A stretch of 16,895 bases of DNA, taken from the NCBI GenBank assembly GCA_947085205.1, contig CAMTVO010000046.1, positions 1-16,895 on the forward strand. Direction: 5' to 3'. Made by a program: the position numbers and the translations under genes. Of the stretch, positions 1-14,295 are shown in pieces. The number at the start of each line of letters is the position of its first letter. The stretch's first letter is position 1. The DNA is from an uncultured Nitrospiraceae bacterium. GTDB lineage: Bacteria > Nitrospirota > Thermodesulfovibrionia > Thermodesulfovibrionales > Dissulfurispiraceae. Below the pieces are notes generated by a model that saw nothing but the letters and a program-made list of their open reading frames with translations, searched no databases and was not told the DNA's origin.

Positions 1-2177
1 ACAGTCTCAATCTTCACAAAATTCACTCTCATCCCTGTCCCGCCCATTATAGGGTCAACTGCATATTTTGTTATCAAAGCTGTATCATCAGCGCCTCTTT
101 TATATGCCCTTTTTGTTTCTTTTGAATTATGACCAAAGCCGTGAACCATATAGACACAATCCTCTCTTATTCTTTCTGTCACTTTGAGTTTTATCTTATT
201 AGACTTTGCCCCATCCTGATTCACCAGCGTGACATAAGCGCCATGTTTGACGCCCAGTTCTCTTGCCTTCTTTGTGTTTATCCAGAGTGTATTCTCTCCG
301 AAGAGTTCATTCAGCAGAGGATTATTTACAGTCCTGCCAAAAGAATGAAGGGGATGTCTTCCATAAAGCAAACGGAAGTAGCCTTTCATCGCTGCCTTGT
401 GTCTTGTATATTTTGGCACCGGGTCAAAGCCGTTCTCTTTGAGGTAGTTTGAATATAGTTCAATCTTTCCCGACTCTGTGTTAAAAACAGGTTCTTTTTC
501 TGCCGTTATATATGGCGCAGCGGTCTCCGGAAAGACTATTGTGCCTTTTTCTTTAATCTCCCTTAGAGTAATTTTTCTGTTATCCAGTCTCTGCTGAAGG
601 TATTCCTCTATATTCTTCCATGGGAAATATTCATGAAGTCCGAGCTTGCTTCCAAGCTCCCTCACTATCTGCCACCCCGGCCGGCTTTCATACATGGGCT
701 GAACAACCGGTTGTCTTAAGCCTACTGCCATTGCCTTTCCTTTTCCTACTTTAAGGTCATCATACCTCTCAAGATATGTGCACTCAGGCAGAACAACATC
801 TGCCCACTCAACAACTTCGTAAGGCAGGACATCACATGCTACCATCAGGTCAAGTTTACGAATAGCATCAATTGTCTCCCGCGGCGCCGGAAGGGTTTTC
901 AGAATATTCATACTATAAATAAACCATCCCTTAACAGCGTATGGTTTTCCAGTGAGAGTCGCCTTCCTTATCTCCGTTGTCGTGGCGTCTGCCCCATAAG
1001 GATAACCAACTAATTTCGGTTTTTCAGGCTTTGGAGGCGGAACTTTATATTTATATCCCGGCAGTCCTGCCTCTGTAGGAATGTAGCAGCCGCCCTTTCT
1101 TCCGTAAGCGCCCATAAGCGCTGTAATAATCGCCATTGCCCTTGCCCTCTGTGTATCATCCCCATACCATACGACCTTCCTCCCGGGGTGTATTACAACT
1201 GATGGCTTATTGCGCGCCATCTCCCTTGCTGTCTCTACTATCAGTTTTGCATCAATACTTGTCTCTTTTGATGCCCATCCAGGGGTATAGTCCTTCACAG
1301 CGTCCATAAGTTCACGGAGTCCGACAGCATATTTGCTGATGTAATCTTTGTCATAGAGTCCTTCTTTCAGTATCACATTTATCCATGTGAGGAGAAGGGC
1401 TAAATCGGTTCCAGGCTTTATCGGTAGCCACCAATCAGCCTTTCCAGCAGCAGTAGAAAATCTCGGGTCCACTACACATAATTTTGCGCCCCTTGACAAC
1501 GCCTCAACAAAGTCCTGTATCTGACTGCTGTGCACATTCTCACCTAAGTGAGAGCCTATAAGCACAATAAAACGGCTTTCTGCAAGGTCAAGCGGCTCAG
1601 GTGATGGGAGCGCGCCATCTCCAAAGGTCAGGTCATAACCTACAGAAACAGCGCCGCGGCACTGCGCCCATGAAGCAGTCGCAAAATTAGGACTCCCAAA
1701 AGAGGCAAGAAGATGCTTCCAGAATACACCACCAGGGCCATGTGACATGCAGGCAATTGATTCAGCGCCGTATTTCTTCTTTATCATTTTCATTTTGTCG
1801 GCAATAAATCCAAGCGCCTCATCCCAGCTCACCTTTTTCCATTGAGGCTCACCCCTTTTACCCACATTCAGCATAGGATGCTTCAGCCTGTCAGGATCAT
1901 AAAGCAAACCTGTCCCTGCATTACCCCTTGCGCACAATCTACCCCTGCTCGCTGGGTCAGCGGGATTTCCATCAAGTTTGACTACTTGTCCATTCACTAC
2001 CTTTGCTATAATGCCGCAGTTCCAGAAACAAAGGTCGCAGAATGTAGGAACCAGCTTTGTCTCTCCAGACAATAATACTTTCTCATTTGCATCTACAAGG
2101 CTGGTGAGTCCTCCACTGATTCCGATTCCTCCAGCAATGGTAGCCGCTTTTAAAAACTCTCTTCTGCTTAATCCCAT
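1..2177 (-). CDS. psrA: Molybdopterin oxidoreductase catalytic subunit, polysulfide/thiosulfate reductase (PsrA/PhsA) type; Tat-exported; 3' end runs off the window
   Basis: Absent from the ORF track because there is no stop in the window. Manual translation from ATG 2177 gives MGLSRREFLK (twin-arginine signal), CDLCFWNC...LCARG ([4Fe-4S] motif), YDPDRLKHP, SWDEAL, ASWAQCRG (probable Mo-ligand Cys), VVDPRFS, PIKPGTDLAL, WADVVLPECTYLER and C-terminal VYMVHGFG. RBS AAGGAG overlaps the upstream stop. PsrA and PhsA cannot be distinguished by eye. Confidence 0.9.
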   Translation of the reverse strand, partial: MGLSRREFLKAATIAGGIGISGGLTSLVDANEKVLLSGETKLVPTFCDLCFWNCGIIAKVVNGQVVKLDGNPADPASRGRLCARGNAGTGLLYDPDRLKHPMLNVGKRGEPQWKKVSWDEALGFIADKMKMIKKKYGAESIACMSHGPGGVFWKHLLASFGSPNFATASWAQCRGAVSVGYDLTFGDGALPSPEPLDLAESRFIVLIGSHLGENVHSSQIQDFVEALSRGAKLCVVDPRFSTAAGKADWWLPIKPGTDLALLLTWINVILKEGLYDKDYISKYAVGLRELMDAVKDYTPGWASKETSIDAKLIVETAREMARNKPSVVIHPGRKVVWYGDDTQRARAMAIITALMGAYGRKGGCYIPTEAGLPGYKYKVPPPKPEKPKLVGYPYGADATTTEIRKATLTGKPYAVKGWFIYSMNILKTLPAPRETIDAIRKLDLMVACDVLPYEVVEWADVVLPECTYLERYDDLKVGKGKAMAVGLRQPVVQPMYESRPGWQIVRELGSKLGLHEYFPWKNIEEYLQQRLDNRKITLREIKEKGTIVFPETAAPYITAEKEPVFNTESGKIELYSNYLKENGFDPVPKYTRHKAAMKGYFRLLYGRHPLHSFGRTVNNPLLNELFGENTLWINTKKARELGVKHGAYVTLVNQDGAKSNKIKLKVTERIREDCVYMVHGFGHNSKETKRAYKRGADDTALITKYAVDPIMGGTGMRVNFVKIET

Positions 2178-2182
2178 AGTTT

Positions 2183-3550
2183 TTACTCCTTGCTTATCTC
2201 GTATTTTCCGGCTTTGTCTATCTCAATGATTGCATCAAGAAACCTAACTTTATAGCCTGCATCTCTCAATGTATGATAAGCCATTTCAGACCTGCTACCC
2301 ACTGCGCAGTGGATGATTACCTCTTTATCTTTTGGGATTTCTGCTAATCGTTTTGATATGTCCGGCGCCGGAATGTTTTTCGCTCCTTTAAGCATGCCTT
2401 GCTTTGTTTCATCTGCATCGCGCACATCAAGTATAAACTTATCCGGTGGAAGCGTCTCTACTATACGTTTAAATTCCTCAACTACAATCTCACCAGTCTT
2501 AGGCTTTGCAACATATACTATGGCAGTTTTGAGATTATCGGTTAAAACCGGATTCCCTGCCTTTTTCCATGCCTCTATACCGCCTCTAAGCGAAGAAGTG
2601 TTGGTGTATCCCCAGCCCCTGATAGTCTTAAATGCATCTGATGCGGTCTTATCATCAGCGGCGTAGAGGACTATGGGAGCCTTTTTATCTGCCGGGAACC
2701 TGTCCCGTGCAGCCGGGGCTGATAATTCTCTTACAGGCATTGATACGGCATCTTTTATATGTTCCTTTTTAGCATCGTCCACCGGTCTCAGATCAATAAT
2801 AACCTGCGGCATGTCTTTATCCATATTATCTTTTACATATCTTGGAGTAGAGAACACCATGTTGCCGGCTCTCTTCCATGCAGGCATGCCATCACGAAAG
2901 ACCTTTACATTTGTATAACCGAGTTTCTCCGCCTTACCGGCAGAGTCTGGGGAGAACATTCAAGTAGGGCCTCCGCAGTAGAAAATGAGCATCCTGTCCT
3001 TTTCCTTTGGAAGCTTATCTACATTCTTATCAAAATCTGCAAAGTATATTGAAATCGCTCCAGGGATATGTCCTTCATGGTATCTAGTCGCTGGTCTGGC
3101 ATCAATAATTAAAAAATTTCCTTTTTCAGCGCCCAGATCAACAAGCTTTGCCACTTCCGCAACCATTATCAGCTTTTCAGGCGCAACTGTTATCGGCTGT
3201 TTAACCGCTACTCTATCTGCATAAAGCTCGCCTTTTTTCTCTGTTATGGTTACAAAAATGTCACTGTCTTTTGGGATTCCATCCAGCGCCTTTGCGCCGA
3301 TAAGCTTTACTTCAGCAGGAACAAATTTAACCAGCCATGTTGCAGGACCTACCTGCATTTGAATAGTCGCTGCATCCATCAATACCCTTGTCATAGTCCC
3401 CATTAGAATCTTTTCGTCCGGCGCATGGCATGGTATGCAAGTAGGCGCTGCCTTTGGTTTTTGTGATTGTGCCATACCTGCAGTATTGAACAGGAATAGT
3501 CCTGCTGCCATAAGGATAGCGATTGTGATGAGCAATATCTTTTTACTCAT
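2183..3550 (-). CDS. Exported multi-rhodanese sulfurtransferase with N-terminal CxxCH heme-c motif; probable selenoprotein (Sec at UGA 2960-2962), about 455 aa
   Basis: ORFs 2960..3550 and 2183..2959 are in frame, separated only by TGA, which falls inside rhodanese domain 1 (IFYCGGPT-U-MFSPDSAGKAEKLGYTNVKVFRDGMPAW). Also seen: signal peptide MSKKILLITIAILMAAGLFLF, CIPCH, domain 2 without catalytic Cys (VLYAADD), and domain 3 IIHCAVGSRS. A hairpin follows the UGA. Confidence 0.88.
2927..2945 (-). promoter_or_regulatory. Bacterial SECIS-like stem-loop
   Basis: mRNA reads UGA-AUGUUCUCCCCAGA-CUCUGCC-GGUAA-GGCGGAG. This gives a 7-bp stem (one G-U pair) and a 5-nt loop starting with G, 21 nt after the UGA, which fits the bacterial SECIS consensus. 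Confidence 0.8.
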
Positions 3551-3610: not shown

Positions 3611-3628
3611 AAGCAAATACTATGCCTA
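3611..3628 (-). promoter_or_regulatory. Sigma54 (-24/-12) promoter for the rhodanese-psrA operon
   Basis: Minus strand TAGGCATAGTATTTGCTT has exact GG-N10-GC spacing, about 60 nt upstream of ATG 3550 and next to a divergent sigma54 activator gene. Confidence 0.85.
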
Positions 3629-3783: not shown

Positions 3784-5154
3784 ATGGAAAGATTCTTAAA
3801 AAATATACGCTTTCTGAAAAGCATACTCGAAACCATGACGGACGGGCTCATGGTAGTGGATAAGGAGGGGAATATCCTGTTCTTTAACAGTGCTGCCGAG
3901 GAGATAACAGGATATAAAAAGGAAGAAGTAACAGGCAGGCAGTGCATGATGCTGGATACAAGCACATGTGTGGTTTTGACCGATGCTGGAAAGCAAAAAC
4001 GGTGCAGCCTGTTTGAATCAGGTCATGTCTCTAAAAAGAAATGCCATATAAGGGCAAAGGATGGAAGGATTGTCCATCTGCTGAAAAATGCCGTTGTTCT
4101 AAAGGACAGCAGCGGCGAGGTCGTAGGAGGTGTGGAGGCAATGACGGATATAACATCCCTGTATATGAAGGAATTGGAAGTTGAAGAACTCAGAAGCGAA
4201 CTTCAGCAGGAATATGGGTTTATGGGCTTATTAGGCACAAGTCCTACAATGCAAAAGCTATATGAGCAGATACAGGATGCAGCTATGAGCGAGGCGCCTG
4301 TTGTGATATCCGGTGAAAGCGGCACAGGTAAGGAGTTGGTCGCCCATGCAATACACAGGCTCAGCAGGAGACAGGAAGGCCCTTTCATAAAGGTAAATTG
4401 TGCTGCATTGAATGATTTTCTCCTTGAGAGCGAGCTTTTTGGTCATGTAAAAGGGGCTTTTACCGGAGCCATGAGGGATAGACAGGGAAGATTTGAGGCT
4501 GCCGATAACGGAAGCATATTTTTGGATGAAATAGGAGATATGTCTCCGTCCATGCAGGTTAAGATCTTAAGGGCGCTTCAGGAAAATGAGATAGAGAAGG
4601 TGGGAGACCATCGTCCAATCCGTGTGAATGTGAGACTCATAACTGCCACGAATAAGGATATATGCGGTCTTGTGGAATCGGGCCGTTTTAGAGAGGACCT
4701 TTTTTATCGCATAAATGTTATTCCGATATATACCCCGCCTTTAAGGGAAAGGAAGGAAGACATTCCGATTATCATAGCCCATTTCTTAAAGAGGATAAGC
4801 CTTGTCAACCAAAGGAGTATTCAGAGGATTAGCCCAGATGCTATGGAGGCTATGGAGGCATATCACTGGCCAGGCAATGTCCGTCAATTAATAAATGCAC
4901 TTGAATATGCGGCAATAACATTCAAGAATGATATAATAGATATTAAAGACTTGCCTGAATACATATTTAAAAGTCCGGAGAAGACGGATTACAAAGAGAA
5001 ATCTTACAAAAGCCACGAACAGGTCATTTCTGCCTTATCAAAATGCAACTGGAACAGGACGCTCACAGCAAAACATCTCGGTATAAGCAGGGTTACCCTC
5101 TGGAAGATTATGAAAGAGTTCGATATTAATGCAGAGGGCAATATTAGCCGATAA
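3784..5154 (+). CDS. PAS-domain sigma54-dependent transcriptional activator (Fis-type HTH)
   Basis: N-terminal PAS (DGLMVVD...FFNSAAEEITGY), Walker A GESGTGKE, GAFTGA, FLDEIG, FREDLFYR, WPGNVRQL, and HTH NRTLTAKHLGISRVTLWK. Confidence 0.96.
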   Translation: MERFLKNIRFLKSILETMTDGLMVVDKEGNILFFNSAAEEITGYKKEEVTGRQCMMLDTSTCVVLTDAGKQKRCSLFESGHVSKKKCHIRAKDGRIVHLLKNAVVLKDSSGEVVGGVEAMTDITSLYMKELEVEELRSELQQEYGFMGLLGTSPTMQKLYEQIQDAAMSEAPVVISGESGTGKELVAHAIHRLSRRQEGPFIKVNCAALNDFLLESELFGHVKGAFTGAMRDRQGRFEAADNGSIFLDEIGDMSPSMQVKILRALQENEIEKVGDHRPIRVNVRLITATNKDICGLVESGRFREDLFYRINVIPIYTPPLRERKEDIPIIIAHFLKRISLVNQRSIQRISPDAMEAMEAYHWPGNVRQLINALEYAAITFKNDIIDIKDLPEYIFKSPEKTDYKEKSYKSHEQVISALSKCNWNRTLTAKHLGISRVTLWKIMKEFDINAEGNISR

Positions 5155-5172: not shown

Positions 5173-5643
5173 ATGGAACTTACCCATTTTGATGAGGAAG
5201 GCAAGGCGAGGATGGTGGATGTTTCGGAAAAGAAACCGACCCAGCGTGAGGCCGTAGCAGCAGGCTTTGTTTATATGAAGCAGGAAACATTGAAATTGAT
5301 AAAGGACAGGCAGATTTCAAAGGGCGATGTCCTCGGTGTTGCAAGGGTTGCAGGAATTATGGCTGCAAAGAAGACATCAGAGTTGATACCCATGTGTCAT
5401 CCTTTGAACATAACGTCTGTAAACATTGATTTCGATATCGATGAGGAGAAAAATAGGGTCGATATAAAAACGACGGTAAAGATTGTCGGTCAAACAGGGG
5501 TTGAGATGGAAGCGCTCACAGCAACGTCCGTAGCTGCTTTGACCATTTATGACATGTGTAAGGCTGCGGATAAAGAGATGGTGATTTCCAGCATAATGCT
5601 TATGGAAAAGCGCGGAGGAAAGAGCGGAGAATTTATCAGATGA
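5173..5643 (+). CDS. moaC: Cyclic pyranopterin monophosphate synthase MoaC
   Basis: [57 protein letters not shown]. Confidence 0.98.
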
Positions 5644-5670
5644 CAGACTCTGTTATATCTGCCTTCTGGA

Positions 5671-6180
5671 TTAATGATACCTCTCCACGGTGAATTTTAA
5701 TATCTCCATATCTTTATCATCGGGGTCTATACCAGCCTTCAACTTTGTAATCCGCAACTGTTCGTCAACGGTGCTGACTCCTTCAAGGTCTGGCAGCAGC
5801 AACCCTTTTCTGTGGTCTTTAACAACGATTATACCATATCGTTTTGGGTCGAGTTCGGAGATGTCTTTTATCTTCTCCGGCTCTGACAGTACATCTACCG
5901 AATATGTGATGTCCTGAAGTTCGTCTTCCTGAACAGGATAAAACCTCGGGTCTTCGGTAGCGGCGGCTACGGCATTTCTTACGATTTCTTTGTAGATATT
6001 CTCCTCGCATGGAAGGAATGTGCCGATGCATCCCCTCAATTCCCCATGCTTCTTTAATGACACGAAGACGCCTGCCTTTTTCTGCATCTCCGGTAGCAAT
6101 TCTTCAGGGCGGGAGAGGATTTTCCTGTTTTTTACATATTCATCGATGGCTTTTTTAGCGAGTTCAACATAAGGATGCAT
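5671..6180 (-). CDS. amrA: AMMECR1-domain protein (AmmeMemoRadiSam system protein A)
   Basis: GVFVSLKKHGELRGCIGT, AATEDPRF, GLLLPDLEGV. Start placed at ATG 6180 (MHPYVELAK) with GGAG RBS; the track's longer start overlaps the upstream gene. Confidence 0.9.
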   Translation of the reverse strand: MHPYVELAKKAIDEYVKNRKILSRPEELLPEMQKKAGVFVSLKKHGELRGCIGTFLPCEENIYKEIVRNAVAAATEDPRFYPVQEDELQDITYSVDVLSEPEKIKDISELDPKRYGIIVVKDHRKGLLLPDLEGVSTVDEQLRITKLKAGIDPDDKDMEILKFTVERYH

Positions 6181-6186
6181 TTTCAC

Positions 6187-6202
6187 TACTCCATTACTCC
6201 AT
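6187..6202. repeat. Octamer tandem repeat (TACTCCAT)x2
   Basis: Seen directly in the amrA upstream gap; on the minus strand it supplies the GGAG RBS. Confidence 0.6.
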
Positions 6203-6208
6203 GCCTTT

Positions 6209-7225
6209 TCACTTTTCCCTTTGCATTGCGTATTCGGCCATGGCAAGGAGGGCATCTTTTTCTTTGGAGTCTGGAAATACATCAAGTTCGGACTTTGCTT
6301 CCTCTACAAGTTCCCTTGCTGTTTTCAACGATTCGTTTATGGCGTTATACTTTGAAAATAGATTCTGCATTCGATTTAATCCGGAGTTCGTCTCCTGACC
6401 GCTGACTGCTGACTGCTGACTGCTTTTAATAATCTCCTTTATCTCGTCCTTTTCTGTCTCCGATGCCACTTTCAGAAGATAAATCAAAGGCATAGTGATC
6501 TTACCCTCTTCGAGGTCTTTGCCCAGTCTTTTCCCAAGCTCCTTCTGTTCTGCCACATAATCGAGCACATCGTCCGCAAGCTGAAACGCAATCCCTGCCT
6601 TTAAGCCAAAATTTGCAAGAGCAATCTCTTTTTCTTCAGGCGCATTTGCAAGTATTCCTGCAATCCTGCATGCTGCTGATATCAAAACACCTGTCTTTGC
6701 AGATATGATTTCAAAGTATTCTTCCTGTGTTATATCAGGCTCGCCAATCTTGTTTAGTTGTAATATTTCTCCTTCTGTCATGCCGGTTGTTGCGGATGAG
6801 AGCGCCTCCATAATCTTCTGATTTTTCTGATTAACAGCTATCTTCAGCGCATTGGAATAAAGGAAATCTCCAACAAGTATAACAGCCTGATTACCCCATA
6901 TGGAATGTGCTGCTGCCCTGCCTCTTCTCATATCCGCCCCATCAATAACATCGTCATGCAGGAGGGACGCTGTATGTATTGCCTCTATGATTGCAGCAAA
7001 TAAGGTGCGGTTTTCTCCTTTATAACCACAGAGGTCTGCGCTGAGCAGGAGAAAAAGCGGCCGTAATCTTTTGCCGCCGCTCTCAAGGAGATATTTGCCT
7101 ATCAGCGGTATAAGAGGAGCTTCGCTCCGGAACAGTCCTTCAAGTTTAGCCTCAACGAGACTTAATTCCTTTTCATACGCATCAAAAACCTTTTTAATGT
7201 CTATTGTCTGATTATAATTAATCAT
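6209..7225 (-). CDS. ispB: Long-chain polyprenyl diphosphate synthase (octaprenyl/heptaprenyl type)
   Basis: GGKRLRP, LLHDDVID...RRG, GDFLYS, FQLADDVLD, GKDLEEGKITMP. Confidence 0.92.
   Translation of the reverse strand: MINYNQTIDIKKVFDAYEKELSLVEAKLEGLFRSEAPLIPLIGKYLLESGGKRLRPLFLLLSADLCGYKGENRTLFAAIIEAIHTASLLHDDVIDGADMRRGRAAAHSIWGNQAVILVGDFLYSNALKIAVNQKNQKIMEALSSATTGMTEGEILQLNKIGEPDITQEEYFEIISAKTGVLISAACRIAGILANAPEEKEIALANFGLKAGIAFQLADDVLDYVAEQKELGKRLGKDLEEGKITMPLIYLLKVASETEKDEIKEIIKSSQQSAVSGQETNSGLNRMQNLFSKYNAINESLKTARELVEEAKSELDVFPDSKEKDALLAMAEYAMQREK
6395..6424. repeat. Heptamer tandem repeat (CTGACYG)x4 inside the polyprenyl synthase gene
   Basis: ctgaccg-ctgactg-ctgactg-ctgactg-ct, encoding SSQQSAVSGQ. 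Confidence 0.9.
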
Positions 7226-7232
7226 AGCTAAA

Positions 7233-7286
7233 TTAAGGCTGAGGCTGAGGTTAAAGCGAAGATTTTCTTAACCTAAACCTTAACCT
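7233..7286. repeat. Inverted pair of hexamer arrays between mtnA and ispB
   Basis: ttaaggctgaggctgaggttaaag (7233-7256) and cttaacctaaaccttaacct (7267-7286) are imperfect reverse complements. The right arm supplies the mtnA C-terminal VKV and stop. Confidence 0.7.
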
Positions 7287-8334
7287 GATACTCATCAAGA
7301 TTAACATCTTTCTTTGCCAATTTTCTAATGTCTTTCGGCCTGAATGCGCCCTTTTCAGTGATAATTGCCGTCACATATTTTGCCGGCGTAACATCAAATG
7401 CCAAGTTTATTACTTTTACCCCTTCAGGCGCAACCCTATGCCCCCAGATTGTTGTTACCTCTTCAGGATGGCGCTCTTCGATGGGGATAAGCTCTCCTGA
7501 GTTCATGCTGAAATCTATACTGCTTGTCGGTGCTGCAACATAAAAGGGTATGCCGTGCTCTTTGCACAGCACAGCAACAGTATATGTCCCTATCTTATTT
7601 GCCACATCCCCATTCCTTGTTGTCCTGTCTGTTCCCACAATTGCGAGGTCTATCATCCCCTTTTTCATCAATGCGCCTGCTGTATTGTCCGTTATCAATG
7701 TAACCGGAACTCCTGCCTGCATCAGCTCCCATGCGGTAAGCCTCGCTCCCTGAAGCACCGGCCTGGTCTCGTCTGCTATTACTTGTATTTTCTTGCCCTG
7801 TTCTATTGCGACAAATATCGGGGCTGTTGCCGTGCCGTATCCGCCTGTTGCAAGACTTCCTGCATTGCAGTGAGTGAGAACTGTATCGCCGTCTTTTATA
7901 AACTGCGCTCCCCACCTTCCTATTGCCTTATTAACTTCAATGTCTTCCTCATGTATTTTTTTTGCCTCTTCAATGAGAAGTTCCTTTAACCGATTAACCG
8001 ATTCACCCCTTCTCTCTTTCAAAAGCCTTCTTATCCTCTCAACAGCCCATTTTATATTTACTGCCGTAGGCCTTGTTGAAAGCATGACATCAAATATGGT
8101 CTCTATGCCTTTTATGAAGTCCCTGTAATTCTTTGCCGTTATATCCTGTGCGCCGAGAGCTATCCCCATCGCCGCTGCTATGCCGATTGCAGGCGCGCCT
8201 CTTATCCAGAGTTTTTTTATGCCCTCGGCAATGATATGATAATCAGCGCACTCAATGAACTTCACTTCCACAGGAAGCCTGCTCTGGTTAAGCATCATAA
8301 CTTTCCCGTCTTTCCACTCTATTGCTTTTACCAT
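7273..8334 (-). CDS. mtnA: S-methyl-5-thioribose-1-phosphate isomerase
   Basis: IRGAPAIG, TRPTAVN, LTHCNAGSLATGGYGTA, ETRPVLQGARLTAWEL, GDVANKIGTY, FDVTP. Start placed at ATG 8334 (GGAG 7 nt upstream). Confidence 0.97.
   Translation of the reverse strand: MVKAIEWKDGKVMMLNQSRLPVEVKFIECADYHIIAEGIKKLWIRGAPAIGIAAAMGIALGAQDITAKNYRDFIKGIETIFDVMLSTRPTAVNIKWAVERIRRLLKERRGESVNRLKELLIEEAKKIHEEDIEVNKAIGRWGAQFIKDGDTVLTHCNAGSLATGGYGTATAPIFVAIEQGKKIQVIADETRPVLQGARLTAWELMQAGVPVTLITDNTAGALMKKGMIDLAIVGTDRTTRNGDVANKIGTYTVAVLCKEHGIPFYVAAPTSSIDFSMNSGELIPIEERHPEEVTTIWGHRVAPEGVKVINLAFDVTPAKYVTAIITEKGAFRPKDIRKLAKKDVNLDEYQVKV
8309..8328. repeat. Left 20-bp direct repeat of the defence island (within mtnA 5' end)
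   Basis: tctttccactctattgcttt, identical to 16335-16354. Confidence 0.9.
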
Positions 8335-8425
8335 TAAAATCTCCATGAATTCATCATATTAAAACCGTCCTGTCTTTAATGAAAATAATATATATTTCTA
8401 TTTTAACTAATTCTTAATGTTTTAT

Positions 8426-8462
8426 CCTTCCAACCTCGCCTCAAGCTCTGATTTGAAATCCC
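8426..8462. repeat. 37-bp direct repeat, copy 1 (duplicate of res 3' end)
   Basis: ccttccaacctcgcctcaagctctgatttgaaatccc, identical to 10848-10884. Confidence 0.95.
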
Positions 8463-8467
8463 GAAGG

Positions 8468-8592
8468 AATTTCCGAGACAGCGTTTCGGAAATTCCAGAC
8501 ACTGTCTGGGAAATTGGAGTCAATTCTGCACGCAGTGTGTGCATTTTCTTTTGGATTTTTTCTGGCAATTCTGCACACGGTGTGTGCAGAAT
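8468..8592. repeat. Four tandem palindromes with 3-nt centres inside the DUF1016 fragment
   Basis: AATTTCCGAGAC-AGC-GTTTCGGAAATT (8468-8494), CCAGAC-ACT-GTCTGG (8495-8509), TGCACGC-AGT-GTGTGCA (8527-8543), ATTCTGCACAC-GGT-GTGTGCAGAAT (8568-8592). Confidence 0.88.
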
Positions 8593-8939
8593 CTCTTTAT
8601 AAGTAATATAGAACTGCCTCATATGCCAAAGATTTCTCTCTGTAAATCCCTTGCCAAATTGTGGGGTTAAGTCAGCCGATATCTTTTTAAGTAACGCCTC
8701 TCCATATTCTGCCCTTTCCTTACCCTTCTGCTCAAACTCCACAATCTCTCTGCCAATCTCATAATATGCAAGCACCTGCGACTTGTTGATCTGCCGAACA
8801 GCAGTTGCCCTTGCAGAATGGATAATTTCAGCAAGGCGTTTAAACAGCGTGCTATATTTGCTGTGTTTTATTTTTCCGGTCAAAACTTTTCTCCTGTGTC
8901 CGTCATCTCTCTCCCCTTATCCTGTAATCTTGCCTCAAC

Positions 8940-8987
8940 ATCCGAGCCGTGAGTTCAGGATAGGGTTGTCAACGGCAAGGGACATTA
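8940..8987 (-). repeat. 48-bp cassette-boundary repeat A (mini-ORF MSLAVDNPILNSRLGC*, 8935-8985)
   Basis: 41/48 identical to 9664-9711; preceded by RBS-like AAGGAAAGG. Confidence 0.88.
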
Positions 8988-8997
8988 GCCTTTCCTT

Positions 8998-9402
8998 CTA
9001 CGAGTATCTCTTTAAAAATTCATCAACAGTGATGATTTCAATTCCACTGTAGGTTTTCAGCTTCAGAAGATGGGAATCACCGCTCACAATAAGCCTTGCA
9101 TTTCCGTCTATCGCAAGATTTATAAATACATTGTCCGAAGGGTCATCATTTACAGGATGCTCTCTTGAAGAGACATCAATATTCTTTCCTAAACTTTCGA
9201 GGTCTAAAACGACATGGTATATCTCATCAGCATCGAGTCCGAACTTCTTTGATAAAACCCTGACAAGTTCATCCTTTGTCTCTTTGCAGATCAACAGCCT
9301 TAACTTGGCAGACTTTATGATCCGCAATGCTTGACGGGGTTTTCCCTTCCACAAATATCCCAATATAAGGACATTTGTGTCGAATACAATTGTTTCTTTC
9401 AC
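8998..9402 (-). CDS. PIN-domain toxin (PIN_3 / VapC-like)
   Basis: IVFDTNVLI, DDPSDNVFINLA, IVSGDSHLLKL; GTGA overlap with the upstream small gene. Confidence 0.92.
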   Translation of the reverse strand: MKETIVFDTNVLILGYLWKGKPRQALRIIKSAKLRLLICKETKDELVRVLSKKFGLDADEIYHVVLDLESLGKNIDVSSREHPVNDDPSDNVFINLAIDGNARLIVSGDSHLLKLKTYSGIEIITVDEFLKRYS

Positions 9403-9623
9403 TTGCTCTTTCTGACCTCACTCACTATCTTCTCGACTTCCTTCAAACTCATTGGTGCAATCTTTTTCCTTTTGGCCACCTCATCCATATAGGAAAAGAT
9501 ATCTCTTTCCTCTTTGGCTGGAAACACGATAACCTCAACCTTGCTTCCGGGTTTAAAAGGGAGGGGTTTAACGGTAACGCTTTTATCCCTCTCAACCTCT
9601 ATAAGTTTCTTTATTGCCTTCAT
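9399..9623 (-). CDS. Probable antitoxin of the PIN toxin
   Basis: 74 aa, RBS AAAGGAGG, 4-nt overlap with the PIN gene, LPFKPGSKVEVIV beta motif and EVEKIVSEVRK tail. Function inferred from position. Confidence 0.75.
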   Translation of the reverse strand: MKAIKKLIEVERDKSVTVKPLPFKPGSKVEVIVFPAKEERDIFSYMDEVAKRKKIAPMSLKEVEKIVSEVRKSK

Positions 9624-9663
9624 CTTTGGCCTCCTTTAATTTCTCTGTTTATATATTACCAGT

Positions 9664-9711
9664 ATCTAAGCCGTGATTTCAGGATTGGGTCATCAACGGC
9701 AAGTGACATTA
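9664..9711 (-). repeat. 48-bp cassette-boundary repeat B (mini-ORF MSLAVDDPILKSRLRYW*, 9656-9709)
   Basis: 41/48 identical to 8940-8987; its ATG overlaps the DUF86 stop (TAATG). Confidence 0.88.
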
Positions 9712-10050
9712 TTTGACCATACCCTTCAGTATTTCTTGAATAACCGGTTTAACCTGTGGAATAACATCTTTGATTGTATGCCATACGAGATCATATTTAA
9801 TACCGAAGTAAAAGTGGATTAATCTGTCCCTCATGCCTGCCATTTCTTTCCATGGAACTTGAGGATATTTATTTCTTATCGTTTCCGGCAATCCTTTTGC
9901 GGCTTCACCAATGATTTCAAACTTCCTGATAACAGCGCTTGATACCATATCGTTTTTCTGAAAGTCTTCAAAGTCCATGTTTTCAACAAACTTTTCAATG
10001 GCCTGCATTGCCTCTAAAATATCCTTTAGATAAAGGGCATAATCTCTCAT
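9709..10050 (-). CDS. hepT: DUF86 / HepT-like HEPN ribonuclease toxin
   Basis: YLKDILEA, AVIRKFEIIGEA, PWKEMAGMRDRLIHFYFG (RX4HXY motif). Confidence 0.93.
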   Translation of the reverse strand: MRDYALYLKDILEAMQAIEKFVENMDFEDFQKNDMVSSAVIRKFEIIGEAAKGLPETIRNKYPQVPWKEMAGMRDRLIHFYFGIKYDLVWHTIKDVIPQVKPVIQEILKGMVK

Positions 10051-10355
10051 AAATATGCCGCCTCTTTTAATATGCTGTCTTTAATTTCCATTCTGAGAGC
10101 GCTTTCAGGGACAACATCAACACTGCAACTCAATTTCTCCTCAAGGAATAAAGAGAGTCCTGTAAAATCTAAAAGGTTGGCTCCCTCATCGAATTCTACC
10201 AATACATCAATATCGCTCCCTTCTTTTTGCTCGCCTTTTACATAAGAGCCGAAAATGCCCTTTATCTCAGCCCTGTATTTCTGCCTGACCTCTGCTTTAA
10301 GTCCGTTTAGAACCTGAAGAATCTCGGATGCAGACATTGCCTTTACATCACTCAT
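10047..10355 (-). CDS. mntA: Minimal nucleotidyltransferase antitoxin (MntA-like)
   Basis: GIFGSYVKGEQKEGSDIDVLVEF (GSX10DXD), VDVV; ATGA overlap with the HEPN gene; RBS AAGGAGG. Confidence 0.93.
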   Translation of the reverse strand: MSDVKAMSASEILQVLNGLKAEVRQKYRAEIKGIFGSYVKGEQKEGSDIDVLVEFDEGANLLDFTGLSLFLEEKLSCSVDVVPESALRMEIKDSILKEAAYL

Positions 10356-10411
10356 TTTAGCCTCCTTAGTGTCGGCTTTATTTATAAATTTTAACCTTTC
10401 CCTTTCATAAT

Positions 10412-10440
10412 CTCAATATCTGAGCCTCTGCACCTTCAGG
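10412..10440 (-). repeat. Degenerate partial copy C of the cassette-boundary repeat
   Basis: ctcaatatctgagcc (10412-10426) matches ctcaacatccgagcc (8934-8948) at 13/15, followed by the shared ttcagg after a 3-nt indel. Confidence 0.55.
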
Positions 10441-10504
10441 TAATATGCATGTGCCCTTTTGATCTCGCCAGACAAAATAAATATACCTGTCCTATTTTTT
10501 ATTC

Positions 10505-10819
10505 TCACAGTGTGTAGCGTTTTTCAATATCTCCATAAATCAGATAAAACTGACGAATTGCTCTTAAGTGAGGTTCGCCCCAACCCTTGCCAAATTGTTT
10601 AGTCAAATCTCCAGAAAGACGCTTGAGCAAAGCCTCGCCATACTCTGCCCGTTCCTTCCCCTTCTGCTCATACTCCACAACCCTCCTTCCAACAAGCCAG
10701 TAAGTAGCCACCAGCGCGGTATTCACATACCGCACCGCTGTTCTGCGTCCCTGATCAATCAGCGATGCAAGGTCTGTGACAAGCGTGGAGTATTTATTGG
10801 TCTTTGTACTCTTTTTCAT
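10505..10819 (-). pseudogene. Truncated DUF1016 (YhcG-like) N-terminal fragment
   Basis: VNTALVATYWLVGRRVVEYEQKGKERAEYG...FGKGW...RQFY; stops abruptly at KRYTL. Confidence 0.82.
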
Positions 10820-10843
10820 TCACTGCCTTTTTCAATCATTTCT

Positions 10844-13354
10844 TCAACCTTCCAACCTCGCCTCAAGCTCTGATTTGAAATCCCTGTAAGTCTTTTCCCT
10901 TAAGGCCTTAAAAAACAAATCATAACTCATTGGGGATAGAAATTTGAAGTAATAATTGTGTTCTTTTTGCAGTCTATTAAGCCTGTTAAAATGTTCTTTT
11001 GCAAACTCAAGTTTTTTCCTGTTTTCATCCCCCGTAACCCCTTCATGTGCCTTGTCATCTTTAATTTCTACTATGAGGATATCATTCTTAACTTTGATAA
11101 AAAAATCAGGGTTAAAACTTCCTTGTTTTGGATGTTCTCCTTTTCTCCATGAATAATCTATTTTATAAAAACCTACATCAAGGGATTTTATCCATGTATC
11201 AATTGCTTTAGCGTTTTCTTCCTTAATCAAGCCCTGTATAAATTTTCTTTCAGGTTTATAGGATGATAAGACCACATTGAGAGGGGTTTTGAAGTTGTAA
11301 CGATTCTCGATCTTGACAATATCAATAAGTTCGCCATCCTCTTTCATTTCAACCAGTTCATTCAAGAGTTTTCTATCTCCTTCCTCTCCTGATAAGAGGG
11401 AGTAATCGTTCCAAAATACCGTGTTATCACCCCGTAAAGCTCTTATACCTACACTGTTCTTATTCATATTTTCAGTGCTGATTTTATAGGGTTCTTTCGA
11501 TTTTGGCACTATCCTTGGAAATGTGCTACTTTTCCTTTTAATAACACCAAAAGCCTGTAATGTTTTCTGTCTATTTTCTTCACTAATCATACCTGTCTTA
11601 TCGTTTACTTCTTGTAAAGATCGCAGGATAATCTTGGTAATTTTTTCTTTGGGCCATTCCCTGCAATAGTTAGTCCCTGCATCCTGATCAAAAATATATA
11701 GTCTATTAAAAATGTCGTTAGCCACCTCTTTAACTGGATACATTGTATGTGCAATGAAATATTCTTTTTTCTCTTTTATACCAGTTATCGCCATCTCATA
11801 CTCTGTCTCTTCCGAGATAATCTCAGCCTGACTGGAATAAGTAATATATCCTTTTTTAAGCAGTTCAAATTCACCTTCTTTCGGATATTCCTTGCTTTCT
11901 TCTATTATCTTTTCATAATCAATTTGGTACAGGTCAAAGTTATAATTCTCTTTCTTTTTTACTGGATACGATGATATTCGTTTCTCAATTTCCAAAACCT
12001 CATCTACCAGATGCTTAATACTATTTGACCATTTATCGTGATTGAAGACTGTAACAACCGGCTGTTCACCTTTATATATTTCCGGTATCCTTAAACCCCT
12101 TCCCAAAACCTGCGCAATAAGAAGTTTTGAATTAAATGCTCTCTCCTCGTGTGGGACAATCTGAAATACATTTTTAACATCCCAGCCTTCTGAAAGCATA
12201 CTGACTGAGGTAATCCACTCAACAGGATTATCCTTGTCATCAACTCTTTGTAATATCGGGATATTATTCTTGTGTTCATTGGCAGAAGTAACAATTAAAA
12301 CCTTCTCTGCTGCTTTATCTTTACTGATTTTTTCCTTTTTGGAAAGAAATGCAATTAGTTTATCAGTTAGCCGTTTGCATGCCGCAATGTTTTTTGTGAC
12401 CAAGATAGTGATAGGTTTTACCTTCCGGTATTTTACTTTCTTGTTCTCAATATGATTTTCGTAAATTTTCTGAAACTTCTCGTTTTCATTTCCTGATGAG
12501 TCCTCTGCAACATAACGGATGGATTTAACAAATTTTGTTTCTATGGAATCCCTCAGAGAAAAGCGATGAATGACATCGGTGAAATAATCATCGCCAATAT
12601 AACAGGTGCCTGAAAGATTAACGATATATTTAAAACCATATTTTGGGTCAAGCAAGAACTCCTTCCATTTTTTAAGCGCTGTATCAGATGGACTCATCAA
12701 ATGATGGGCTTCATCGTTTAATACCAGTGTCTGTTCGCCTTTTCCCGCAAGGCTGTCTTCAATAGCGGATTTAGTATTAATGTAAGTGGCATGGATGTTT
12801 TCAATGCAAATATCTTCCTTTTGAATAGTATTTGATGCATTGATAATGCGAGGATTGATTATCTTAGAATCAGATGGCAGGAGGTCTTTTAGTGTTCTGT
12901 CAGAAGAAAGACCTCGAAACTTTTCTGTTAAACCTGTTTCAATAGTATTTGAAGGGCAAAGAACTAAAACTCTATTAATCGCTCCTTCAGCAAGCATGAT
13001 GCGTGCGATGCCATACATTACATAACTTTTTCCAGTAGCTGTTGCATGCTCAAGAGAACAGGAAAGTTTATCTGGCAATTGCAGGTAACTTACAAAGTCA
13101 TCAAAAGATGAATATTTTTCCTGAAGTTTTGGATTCCTGTGATAATTTTCCTCTGCCAAGTCTTTGAGGTTTTTGTATTCACCGCCCAAAAAGTATCGCA
13201 GTGTCTCTCTGATTGCCTCTTTCTGATATTCCCTGTCACCGCAGAGGGCATCCAGAAAAGGCTCGTATTTGTTTGGCTCAAATTTGTTAGGATTGTAATT
13301 AGGGGATACTTTGAGGACTAAGTCTTTATTTTGAAAAGTCTGGCGGTCAAGCAT
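10844..13354 (-). CDS. res: Type III-like restriction endonuclease subunit (SF2 helicase plus PD-(D/E)XK nuclease)
   Basis: REYQKEAI, ATATGKS, DEAH, MLSEGWDV, QVLGRGLR, FNPDFF...VEIK. Start placed at ATG 13354, just after the upstream stop. Confidence 0.92.
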   Translation of the reverse strand: MLDRQTFQNKDLVLKVSPNYNPNKFEPNKYEPFLDALCGDREYQKEAIRETLRYFLGGEYKNLKDLAEENYHRNPKLQEKYSSFDDFVSYLQLPDKLSCSLEHATATGKSYVMYGIARIMLAEGAINRVLVLCPSNTIETGLTEKFRGLSSDRTLKDLLPSDSKIINPRIINASNTIQKEDICIENIHATYINTKSAIEDSLAGKGEQTLVLNDEAHHLMSPSDTALKKWKEFLLDPKYGFKYIVNLSGTCYIGDDYFTDVIHRFSLRDSIETKFVKSIRYVAEDSSGNENEKFQKIYENHIENKKVKYRKVKPITILVTKNIAACKRLTDKLIAFLSKKEKISKDKAAEKVLIVTSANEHKNNIPILQRVDDKDNPVEWITSVSMLSEGWDVKNVFQIVPHEERAFNSKLLIAQVLGRGLRIPEIYKGEQPVVTVFNHDKWSNSIKHLVDEVLEIEKRISSYPVKKKENYNFDLYQIDYEKIIEESKEYPKEGEFELLKKGYITYSSQAEIISEETEYEMAITGIKEKKEYFIAHTMYPVKEVANDIFNRLYIFDQDAGTNYCREWPKEKITKIILRSLQEVNDKTGMISEENRQKTLQAFGVIKRKSSTFPRIVPKSKEPYKISTENMNKNSVGIRALRGDNTVFWNDYSLLSGEEGDRKLLNELVEMKEDGELIDIVKIENRYNFKTPLNVVLSSYKPERKFIQGLIKEENAKAIDTWIKSLDVGFYKIDYSWRKGEHPKQGSFNPDFFIKVKNDILIVEIKDDKAHEGVTGDENRKKLEFAKEHFNRLNRLQKEHNYYFKFLSPMSYDLFFKALREKTYRDFKSELEARLEG
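10848..10884. repeat. 37-bp direct repeat, copy 2 (true res 3' end)
   Basis: Identical to 8426-8462. Confidence 0.95.
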
Positions 13355-13356
13355 AA

Positions 13357-14295
13357 CTAACAACTCTCTAAGAAATTCAGTTGGTCTTTATTACAGAAAG
13401 TTAGTATTCGTTCATCATAAAATTGATTCTTTTGTGTAAAAATACTTTTATTTATGATTTCTTTTTTGGCTAATTTGTTTTTAGGAAAAAAAGAAGCGGC
13501 ATATTTTTTATAATAAATGCTCTTAAATTTCCTACCACCCATAATTACTTTAGGAAGGTCGGCATTAACAAGTATCTCAGCAACTTTACACTTTCCCTCA
13601 TGATTTGAGGTATTATCTAACACTTGGCTGATACCACCGATAGTCAGGTCAACATATTGTATTATGTGGCTTTCGTCCTTATACTTTGCTTCGTCATCGT
13701 GATTAGAGTCCACTTCTGTAATTTCTAAGCTCTTGAAAGTAAAAGCAATGGGTTCACCTTGTATAACTGCTTTGAAATTTATTTCTGCAATGGGCTGTGA
13801 GTGGAATTTATCTTGTGGGGTTCTACTTTTTGTATCAGAAAAGATATTTTGTATCACAACTTTTTTAAAGCCAGCATTTTGATTTAGAAAAAACCATTTG
13901 ATTGCCCCATATAATCCTATTTGAAAAAAGCGATTGTAAATCTTAAAATCCTTTGTTTTTGTATTCCAAAGGTCTTTTGCAAGGTTGGTATAATTCACAC
14001 CTAAAAGGTAAAAGTAGGTACTGTTATGTAAAGAGTTACAAAATAGATTAGCCCATCTTATAGCGAGGTCATTCATAGTTCGTGTATCTTTTAAATTAGA
14101 AAAGCGTATCTCTTTTTCCCATGTGCTCGCTGCCCTTTCCTTCTCAAGTGTGTCTATTAGTTGTTTTTTAAACCCAATAGGAACGAATAAGAAACCATGA
14201 TATAGCCATCTCTTTGGAATTTCCCGTTCATCATGGTAAACAAAACATCTAATCTCTTTCGGCAAATTTACATTACCAAAAATATCATGGCTCAT
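13357..14295 (-). CDS. Hypothetical protein, DUF3800-like, between mod and res
   Basis: 312 aa, AT-rich. N-terminal FVYHDE, central FSD and C-terminal DS...IIQYVDL resemble the DUF3800 DE...QxxD pattern. ATGA overlap with mod. Confidence 0.7.
   Translation of the reverse strand: MSHDIFGNVNLPKEIRCFVYHDEREIPKRWLYHGFLFVPIGFKKQLIDTLEKERAASTWEKEIRFSNLKDTRTMNDLAIRWANLFCNSLHNSTYFYLLGVNYTNLAKDLWNTKTKDFKIYNRFFQIGLYGAIKWFFLNQNAGFKKVVIQNIFSDTKSRTPQDKFHSQPIAEINFKAVIQGEPIAFTFKSLEITEVDSNHDDEAKYKDESHIIQYVDLTIGGISQVLDNTSNHEGKCKVAEILVNADLPKVIMGGRKFKSIYYKKYAASFFPKNKLAKKEIINKSIFTQKNQFYDERILTFCNKDQLNFLESC

Follow-up and report, generated by a model that had tools for sequence, protein, structure and literature searches.

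The window analysed here is a stretch of 16,895 nt from an uncultured Nitrospiraceae bacterium (assembly GCA_947085205.1, contig CAMTVO010000046.1), whose source genome assembly amounts to 1.89 Mb in 65 contigs and is 89.7% complete. Near one end of the window, between a PsrA/PhsA-like molybdoenzyme gene and a divergent activator gene, lies a gene on the minus strand (2183–3550) for a putative exported selenoprotein, which would combine a haem c attachment motif with three rhodanese domains. From its ATG (3548–3550) to its TAA (2183–2185), the Open Reading Frame (ORF) listing and the read-through translation give a single frame of 455 codons, and the sole interruption is a TGA at 2960–2962 (minus strand; "tca" on the plus strand). 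The upstream ORF (2960–3550, minus strand) has 196 aa and ends in ...LIFYCGGPT followed by the TGA, and the downstream ORF (2183–2959, minus strand) of 258 aa begins with MFSPD (MFSPDSAGKAEKLGY...) and abuts it directly. The read-through product has 455 residues and needs one non-standard step, the selenocysteine (Sec) U197, which lies five residues past Cys192 (codon at 2975–2977, minus strand), the canonical rhodanese catalytic position. The original prediction had described two in-frame ORFs split by one TGA in the middle of a rhodanese domain, and read-through translation and Pfam both bear this out.

In full-length homologs (about 450 aa), Cys192 is invariant (28 of 28 alignment rows), and column 197 is occupied by Cys in at least 90% of 79 homolog alignment rows. 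A second Cys at the TGA position had been foreseen and is indeed found there; the motif YCGGxxC proposed for it is not the usual one, which is YC[AG]G[PV]TC. In close orthologs from metagenome-assembled genomes the TGA stands at the same column in 6 of 6. Using a match threshold of E <= 1e-40, 87 of 401 sampled Nitrospirota genomes carry a match to the family, and among the 98 genome matches listed, 81 contain exactly one TGA, 1 contains two and 16 contain none. At the locus level, 36 genome loci comprise 33 distinct Sec forms and 3 Cys forms, and in them the TGA is always at C-x4-*. An independent scan of metagenomes, for which about 1500 stored stretches are estimated to fit the pattern, gave TGA in 64 and Cys in 16 of the best 80 loci. 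The TGA hence recurs in many independent assemblies, which answers the concern that it could be an assembly error.

The codon after the TGA is ATG in only 7 of the 33 distinct Sec forms (AGG, AGA, GCT, CGG etc. in the others), indicating that the second half mostly has no start of its own at the TGA. Nevertheless, the best 120 matches in the protein database include 29 sequences of about 255–300 aa which cover 56–57% of the query, and these are C-terminal halves entered as separate proteins; that automated annotation would split the gene had been anticipated. In a tree of 112 rows, whose sampling is biased (Cys rows were drawn from the protein database, Sec rows from searches of genomes), the two forms are intermingled in a Nitrospirota-type clade and well-supported branches force at least 6 changes. 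A second clade of 59 rows has no Sec form: 58 of its rows are Cys forms and the remaining one lacks the two-Cys motif.

Two unusual loci were also recorded in the genome sample. A related genome contains two tandem gene copies (L016 5787–8658, the same locus as L030), each with a hairpin of its own behind a TGA at the same column. At another locus (G338:C102:4828–5535) two in-frame TGA occur within the first 240 residues, which is possibly a double-Sec form.

The bacterial selenocysteine insertion sequence (SECIS), in the rule of the bSECISearch literature, is a stem-loop shortly past the UGA whose apical loop begins with G. A SECIS-like hairpin lies at 2927–2945 (minus strand), with the 7-bp stem and the GGUAA loop that were originally noticed 21 nt downstream. 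Its stem (CUCUGCC/GGCGGAG; 7 bp including one G-U) begins 14 nt past the UGA, and the loop is G-first and starts at 21 nt; the hairpin is conserved among Sec forms. In the 33 distinct Sec forms, 94.8% of 231 stem cells are paired, compared with 39–55% in controls with slid partners. Moreover, three of the seven stem pairs are changed on both sides, partly at synonymous third positions, and the covariation score was reached by 0 of 500 shuffles. The metagenome set had no role in the definition of the stem; its Sec forms (n = 55) retain 6.45 of the 7 pairs at a mean folding free energy of -12.3 kcal/mol, whereas its Cys forms (n = 15) keep 5.0 of 7 pairs with a mean of -6.7 kcal/mol. No Rfam family was found for the hairpin, with only chance-level matches over 2700–3200.

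The machinery for Sec is present in the same genome. Profile searches matched selB (385 bits), selA (634 bits) and selD (330 bits), and tRNA-Sec (selC) is present as well. The selD gene is itself of the Sec type: an in-frame TGA stands at the expected G-U-A-A-K site and a hairpin comes after it; in detail, contig C19 (28630–29544) encodes RAAG-U-AAKMGP, with a GGUCC-GGC-GGACC hairpin 12 nt past the UGA. In summary, the selenoprotein reading of the original prediction passes the tests that were named for it (Cys in aligned homologs, recurrent TGA, covarying hairpin and Sec machinery), and from these sequence data the in-frame TGA is very likely decoded as selenocysteine.

The joined protein was then described by profiles and a structure model. 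Pfam rhodanese (PF00581) matches it with 165 bits (cut-off 22.2) in three stretches, the best of which is 140–227, and partial NCBIfam matches place rhodanese domains at about 140–229, 248–340 and 353–434. The TGA thus cuts domain 1 within its active-site loop. The full-length structure model is compact and confident (predicted local distance difference test, pLDDT, 93.6; predicted template modelling score, pTM, 0.83), and each of the three domains has rhodanese fold matches, with Z from 13.9 to 16.4. Domain 1 (residues 140–227; 2870–3133, minus strand) carries the loop FYC192-GGPT-U197-MFS and matches 3nhv_A with Z 16.4. Domain 2 (residues 248–340; 2531–2809, minus strand) reads IVLYAADD and matches GlpE (1gn0_A) with Z 13.9 over 228–339; it is presumably inactive, since Ala replaces the catalytic Cys that domains 1 (Cys192) and 3 (Cys415) both have. 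Domain 3 (residues 353–434; 2249–2494, minus strand) contains the classical loop HC415-AVGSR-S, in which Cys415 is present in at least 90% of the 79 alignment rows, and it matches the rhodanese domain of a persulfide reductase (3nt6_A; Z 15.5, root-mean-square deviation 2.2, 93 aligned, 36% identity; sequence E about 1e-13). Fold matches were further obtained to Sud of Wolinella (1qxn; Z 11.8, with a weak sequence match of E 4.8e-4) and to a Leishmania As/Sb reductase of rhodanese fold (Z 11.8).

Ahead of the rhodanese domains, a predicted signal peptide of the secretory (Sec) type occupies residues 1–27 (3470–3550, minus strand; ending ...AGMA before QS), as read from a basic N-terminus and a hydrophobic helix (modelled H2-23). 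It is followed by CIPCH (Cys38, Cys41, His42; 3425–3439, minus strand), a predicted haem c attachment motif, and by a six-stranded OB-like beta-barrel (residues 48–116; 3203–3409, minus strand) found by structure model and fold search. The domain order that had been proposed from the letters alone (signal peptide, CxxCH, beta-rich domain, C-x4-U rhodanese, Cys-less rhodanese, Cys rhodanese) is therefore borne out by profiles and model.

Both Cx2CH and Cx4CH are known forms of haem c attachment. Across the aligned N-terminal domains the haem motif is invariant (33 of 33, with 29 CxxCH and 4 Cx4CH among the genome N-termini), CxxCH is found in 56 of 56 distinct metagenome forms, and every distinct N-terminus retrieved has the motif. 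Cytochrome c maturation genes had been named as a further check, and ResB and CcsA, the System II maturation pair, are adjacent on contig C43. As expected for a c-type cytochrome, the CxxCH thus occurs in a predicted-exported protein of a genome with maturation genes, and covalent haem c attachment at Cys38/Cys41/His42 is predicted from the sequence with good, though less than complete, confidence.

For the barrel (residues 48–116), the isolated-domain model has pLDDT 83.8, and the fold search returned OB folds (top 1x54_A with Z 7.5, root-mean-square deviation 2.2 and 74 aligned; SilF 6.4; YgiW 6.2); we call it no more than "OB-like" because no match attains Z 8. Pfam gave nothing significant on the N-terminal 125 residues or on all 33 N-terminal domains, and one distant homolog has a sub-threshold DUF7283 match in this domain. 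The full-length model gives residues 31–50 more confidence than the isolated-domain model does; together with the high pTM of the whole model, this suggests that the haem arm may pack on the protein body.

The gene ends 5 nt before the start of the PsrA/PhsA-like molybdopterin oxidoreductase (3–2177, minus strand), which has a twin-arginine signal and whose 3' end is off the contig. Its best NCBIfam match is PhsA with 559 bits, below the cut-off of 694, and ArrA and YnfE/F models give 160–170 bits. The same genome has a Cys-type paralog on contig C39 (43% identity, loop FYCVGGCS, CxxCH kept), where the gene order is psrA', psrB, psrC (NrfD), a 138-aa exported protein without assignment, and the Cys-type haem/triple-rhodanese paralog; a third psrACB set is located on contig C38. 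In metagenomes, same-strand psrA/B/C-like genes accompany 9 of the best 80 loci, and all nine are among the 16 Cys-type loci. Linkage to a Psr/Phs-type enzyme is therefore found in the window, at the C39 paralog and at these nine metagenome loci, and is lacking at 35 of 36 genome loci; the Psr link is real for the family and unusual for its Sec branch. Adjacency to psrA as a family-wide rule for Sec forms was rejected (1 of 36 loci).

Contig C39 (L062 1–4769) begins inside a second psrA, which shares 87% nucleotide identity with the window psrA (1–1400) over 1319 nt, in a mosaic of 65–97% per 100 nt. Both contigs break in or at psrA, so paralogs or strain variants may have been collapsed by the assembly.

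Among known sulfur proteins, Sud of Wolinella succinogenes is a periplasmic polysulfide-sulfur transferase which serves the polysulfide reductase PsrABC. Sud and the window protein are both exported rhodaneses associated with a Psr-type molybdoenzyme, but Sud is a homodimer with a single domain and a single Cys, and has neither haem nor Sec. The NADH-dependent persulfide reductase (Npsr) has a C-terminal rhodanese that resembles domain 3, and its rhodanese Cys works with a redox cofactor on persulfide; however, Npsr is cytoplasmic and flavin-dependent, whereas the window protein is predicted to be exported and its redox partner would be haem.

Sec-containing rhodaneses form a known class. Five rhodanese-like selenoprotein forms are tabulated in PMC13188914 (UxxS, UxxG, CxU, UxxG and TsoB UxxxxU), and like the window protein they are genomics-predicted PF00581 rhodaneses with Sec in or beside the active-site loop. 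Going by the table descriptions, which are the basis of this comparison, none of the five is given a CxxCH, an OB-like domain or three rhodaneses (PMC13188914). The UxxS motif of form 1, exemplified in that table by a Geobacter sulfurreducens record, fits the window loop U-MF-S and the metagenome loops U-x-x-S(P); in forms 2 and 4 (UxxG) the Sec takes the catalytic position, whereas here Cys is catalytic and Sec comes five residues on (PMC13188914). A Genome Biology paper of 2006 lists no rhodanese selenoprotein for Geobacter, and starting a homolog search from a Geobacteraceae member gave Cys forms only, with no named form 1 record. Form 3 is CxU in the same table (PMC13188914) and the window loop is C-x4-U; on its model (NF041203) the window protein scores 80.2 bits against a cut-off of 115. 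On the TsoB model (NF045694) it scores 64.4 bits against 805, having one Sec and no membrane or thioredoxin part.

A true TsoB was found in the phylum sample (828 bits against the cut-off of 805, two TGA). Besides a signal peptide it carries a single rhodanese domain, a thioredoxin domain and a membrane core of the DsbD type. Its gene is located at L064 1501–3207 (G366), in a genome of the same order. Position by position, FY-U-DGLT-U-VRS of TsoB matches FY-C-GGPT-U-MFS of the window protein (E 1e-15; 39% identity across 95 residues), and the two Sec of TsoB coincide exactly with Cys192 and Sec197, with equal x4 spacing and Thr before the second position. The two proteins differ in their other parts: TsoB has a double Sec and one rhodanese with DsbD and thioredoxin, whereas in the window protein one of the two positions is Cys and the other Sec, and three rhodaneses are combined with an OB-like barrel and a haem motif.

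The nearest characterised system that joins haem c, Sec and sulfur is MccSep/ExtKL, a five-haem Sec polysulfide reductase (PMC13510729). The MccSep gene cluster, which has been tied to selenite/tellurite reduction, includes the rhodanese-like ExtH (PMC5877670). MccSep and ExtH resemble what is predicted for the window protein in being periplasmic, in haem c plus Sec, in sulfur respiration and in a multi-domain rhodanese of the cluster (PMC13510729; PMC5877670), and both families occur in Desulfobacterota and Thermodesulfovibrionia. MccSep, however, is described with five haems and without rhodanese, ExtH being separate, whereas the window protein has one haem motif, Sec and rhodaneses in one chain. 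On the ExtH model (NF040901) it scores 20.5 bits against a cut-off of 200 (E 1.9e-4).

From the above, the window protein is a further member of an established group, the rhodaneses that contain selenium. No description of a haem-c/triple-rhodanese selenoprotein architecture was found in the literature searched. The novelty claimed in the original prediction was too strong, because five Sec rhodanese forms are catalogued (PMC13188914), MccSep already joins haem c and Sec in sulfur respiration (PMC13510729), and the family is very common. Two papers considered as reports on haem-rhodanese (PMC12998232 and PMC3543383) concern other proteins and were rejected.

We regard it as likely that the gene encodes an exported haem-c/OB-barrel/triple-rhodanese selenoprotein, predicted to take up sulfane sulfur and to serve a PsrA/PhsA-type molybdoenzyme. 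In this mechanism SelB would read the hairpin and insert Sec197, and the protein would be exported and receive haem at Cys38/Cys41/His42. Cys192 may be paired with Sec197, either for redox activity or for binding sulfur, as a persulfide or a selenenylsulfide; both residues are conserved, and the main argument is that the two-chalcogen loop of TsoB is fused to an electron-delivery module. Domain 3 (Cys415, CxxGxR) would be a classical sulfurtransferase site, and the bound sulfur would be passed to the Psr/Phs-type reductase or be reduced on the spot with electrons delivered by haem. The protein may thus be a carrier or, with lower likelihood, a haem-fed reductase. The psr linkage in the family and the structural likeness of domain 3 to Npsr and of the protein to Sud suggest a periplasmic sulfane-sulfur handler for Psr/Phs-type reductases, and on balance we favour this linked role, with less confidence than the architecture.

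Several observations weigh against this interpretation. Selenium and haem are both predicted in the protein, and the sequence does not separate carrier from reductase. Taken by itself, the folding energy of the hairpin is not unusual (z -0.76, with 44 of 200 shuffles folding equally well), so its evidential weight lies in conservation. For the N-terminal domain, the fold search gave no cytochrome, only OB-like matches below Z 8; the aligned N-termini have no conserved Met or second His as distal haem ligand, and the CxxCH arm has pLDDT of only 60–72 in the isolated-domain model. Regarding the partner enzyme, psrB and psrC of the window operon are not seen because the contig ends inside psrA, no other contig end in the genome carries a psrB able to continue the operon, and the two genes did not turn up elsewhere. 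Among the 36 genome loci, psrA adjoins the gene in this window only, and psr genes are found beside 0 of 64 Sec-type metagenome loci, many of which are on short contigs.

Other explanations were weighed against the same evidence. If the TGA were a true stop, the locus would contain two genes, a pseudogene or an assembly error, or else TGA would be reassigned genome-wide. Standard ORF calling does yield two ORFs with an ATG directly past the TGA, and the 29 halves among the best 120 database matches are publicly listed as separate proteins; but the break would fall inside the active-site loop of one domain that is modelled as a unit (pLDDT >90), the hairpin covaries, and the TGA recurs in 81 genome matches (among the 98 listed) and in 64 of the best 80 metagenome loci, with ATG as next codon in only 7 of 33 distinct Sec forms. 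TGA also ends seven other genes of the window, so it is not reassigned genome-wide, and we consider this whole group of explanations extremely improbable. For the CxxCH, a thiol or metal site without haem might instead sit on a flexible arm and exchange sulfur or electrons with the Cys-Sec loop. An OB-like barrel is what periplasmic metal chaperones such as SilF/CusF (Z 6.4) and YgiW (Z 6.2) have, and the missing cytochrome fold, the missing conserved distal ligand in the aligned rows and the low-confidence arm of the isolated-domain model would suit such a site. We judge it quite unlikely, however, given that a His is invariant directly past the second Cys, that the spacing varies only between Cx2CH and Cx4CH, that the protein has an export signal (read from sequence), and that the ResB/CcsA pair is in the genome.

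The function allows for two further alternatives to a sulfur carrier serving a Psr/Phs-type enzyme. In one of them the protein is itself a redox enzyme, in which haem c would feed single electrons to a Cys192-Sec197 selenenylsulfide and sulfide would be released from persulfide or polysulfide, making it a small rhodanese-based counterpart of MccSep. The loop of TsoB, which matches and is fused to a DsbD membrane core and thioredoxin, points in this direction, as do the conservation of both chalcogen positions, the haem motif fused in every family member retrieved, the haem arm that appears to pack on the body in the full-length model, and the precedent of MccSep, where haem, Cys and Sec together reduce polysulfide (PMC13510729). 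However, one haem gives one electron while an S-Se bond needs two, and the adjoining Psr/Phs-type enzyme is already a reductase, so that we hold a redox enzyme to be possible but unlikely. With the same low probability, the rhodanese scaffold would have become a selenoenzyme driven by a single c-type haem on an N-terminal arm, its Cys192-Sec197 pair cleaving persulfide or polysulfide sulfur that the classical rhodanese site has gathered; if true, both the five-haem MccSep and the DsbD-fed double-Sec TsoB would have a convergent counterpart here within a single chain. The other alternative is that the system handles oxyanions of selenium, tellurium or arsenic rather than sulfur. Rhodanese proteins accompany selenite/tellurite reduction clusters, ExtH being one such protein (PMC5877670), and PsrA-like enzymes include oxyanion reductases; the weak ExtH model match (E 1.9e-4, 20.5 bits), the scores of the molybdoenzyme on ArrA and YnfE/F models and the rhodanese-fold As/Sb reductase of Leishmania (Z 11.8) fit in with this. 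But PhsA is by far the best match of the molybdoenzyme (559 bits against 160–170 for ArrA and YnfE/F), the ExtH score is far under its cut-off of 200, and the relatives are sulfur-cycling Nitrospirota and Desulfuromonadales. In addition, MccSep of the same Geobacter cluster has since been shown to be a polysulfide reductase (PMC13510729), and we give oxyanions a slightly smaller chance still than a haem-free CxxCH.

The family is large, with the 87 of 401 sampled genomes and the estimated 1500 or so metagenome stretches mentioned above, and its Sec forms are recorded as two fragments by gene callers and in the public protein sets searched, which is a systematic mis-annotation. Both the demand for selenium and the sulfur chemistry in the periplasm of sulfur-cycling Nitrospirota are therefore under-counted. 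The family also offers a natural series of Cys/Sec swaps at one rhodanese loop position, to which TsoB adds a double-Sec relative, making the role of a second chalcogen in a rhodanese active site directly testable. If haem does feed the Cys-Sec pair, this would be a new way of building a sulfane-sulfur reductase.

On the upstream side of the selenoprotein gene, the divergent gene at 3784–5154 (plus strand) encodes a PAS / sigma-54 enhancer-binding activator (Pfam Sigma54_activat 235 bits, PAS, HTH_8). Its orthologs (61–69% identity) adjoin the rhodanese gene in 10 of 36 genome loci. A candidate sigma-54-type -24/-12 element, AGGCATAGTATTTGCT, is located at 3612–3627 (minus strand), 62 nt upstream of the ATG and with 2 mismatches. 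Such GGCA-N7-TTGC elements are found in 9 of 33 distinct upstream regions, all nine of which belong to the ten activator-linked loci, and seven of the nine lie at a consistent distance. Over the whole window, matches to the sigma-54 consensus are not above chance in number (11 found against 8.7 expected), and the element is retained as a candidate solely for where it lies and for occurring together with the activator.

Further along the window (5173–8346), the rhodanese gene is flanked by genes for MoaC, AMMECR1, polyprenyl synthase and MtnA, whose order is shared with a related genome (L016 1487–5373) where they flank it too. The activator and psrA are both absent at this related locus, which suggests that they were added at the window locus.

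The remaining part (8422–16292) resembles a defence or mobile island. It includes DUF1016_N fragments (8422–8883 and 10505–10819), a PIN toxin (8998–9402), a HepT/MntA-type pair (9709–10355), a ResIII-type helicase/restriction protein (10844–13363), a 312-aa protein without family (13357–14295) and an N6/N4 DNA methylase (14292–16292).

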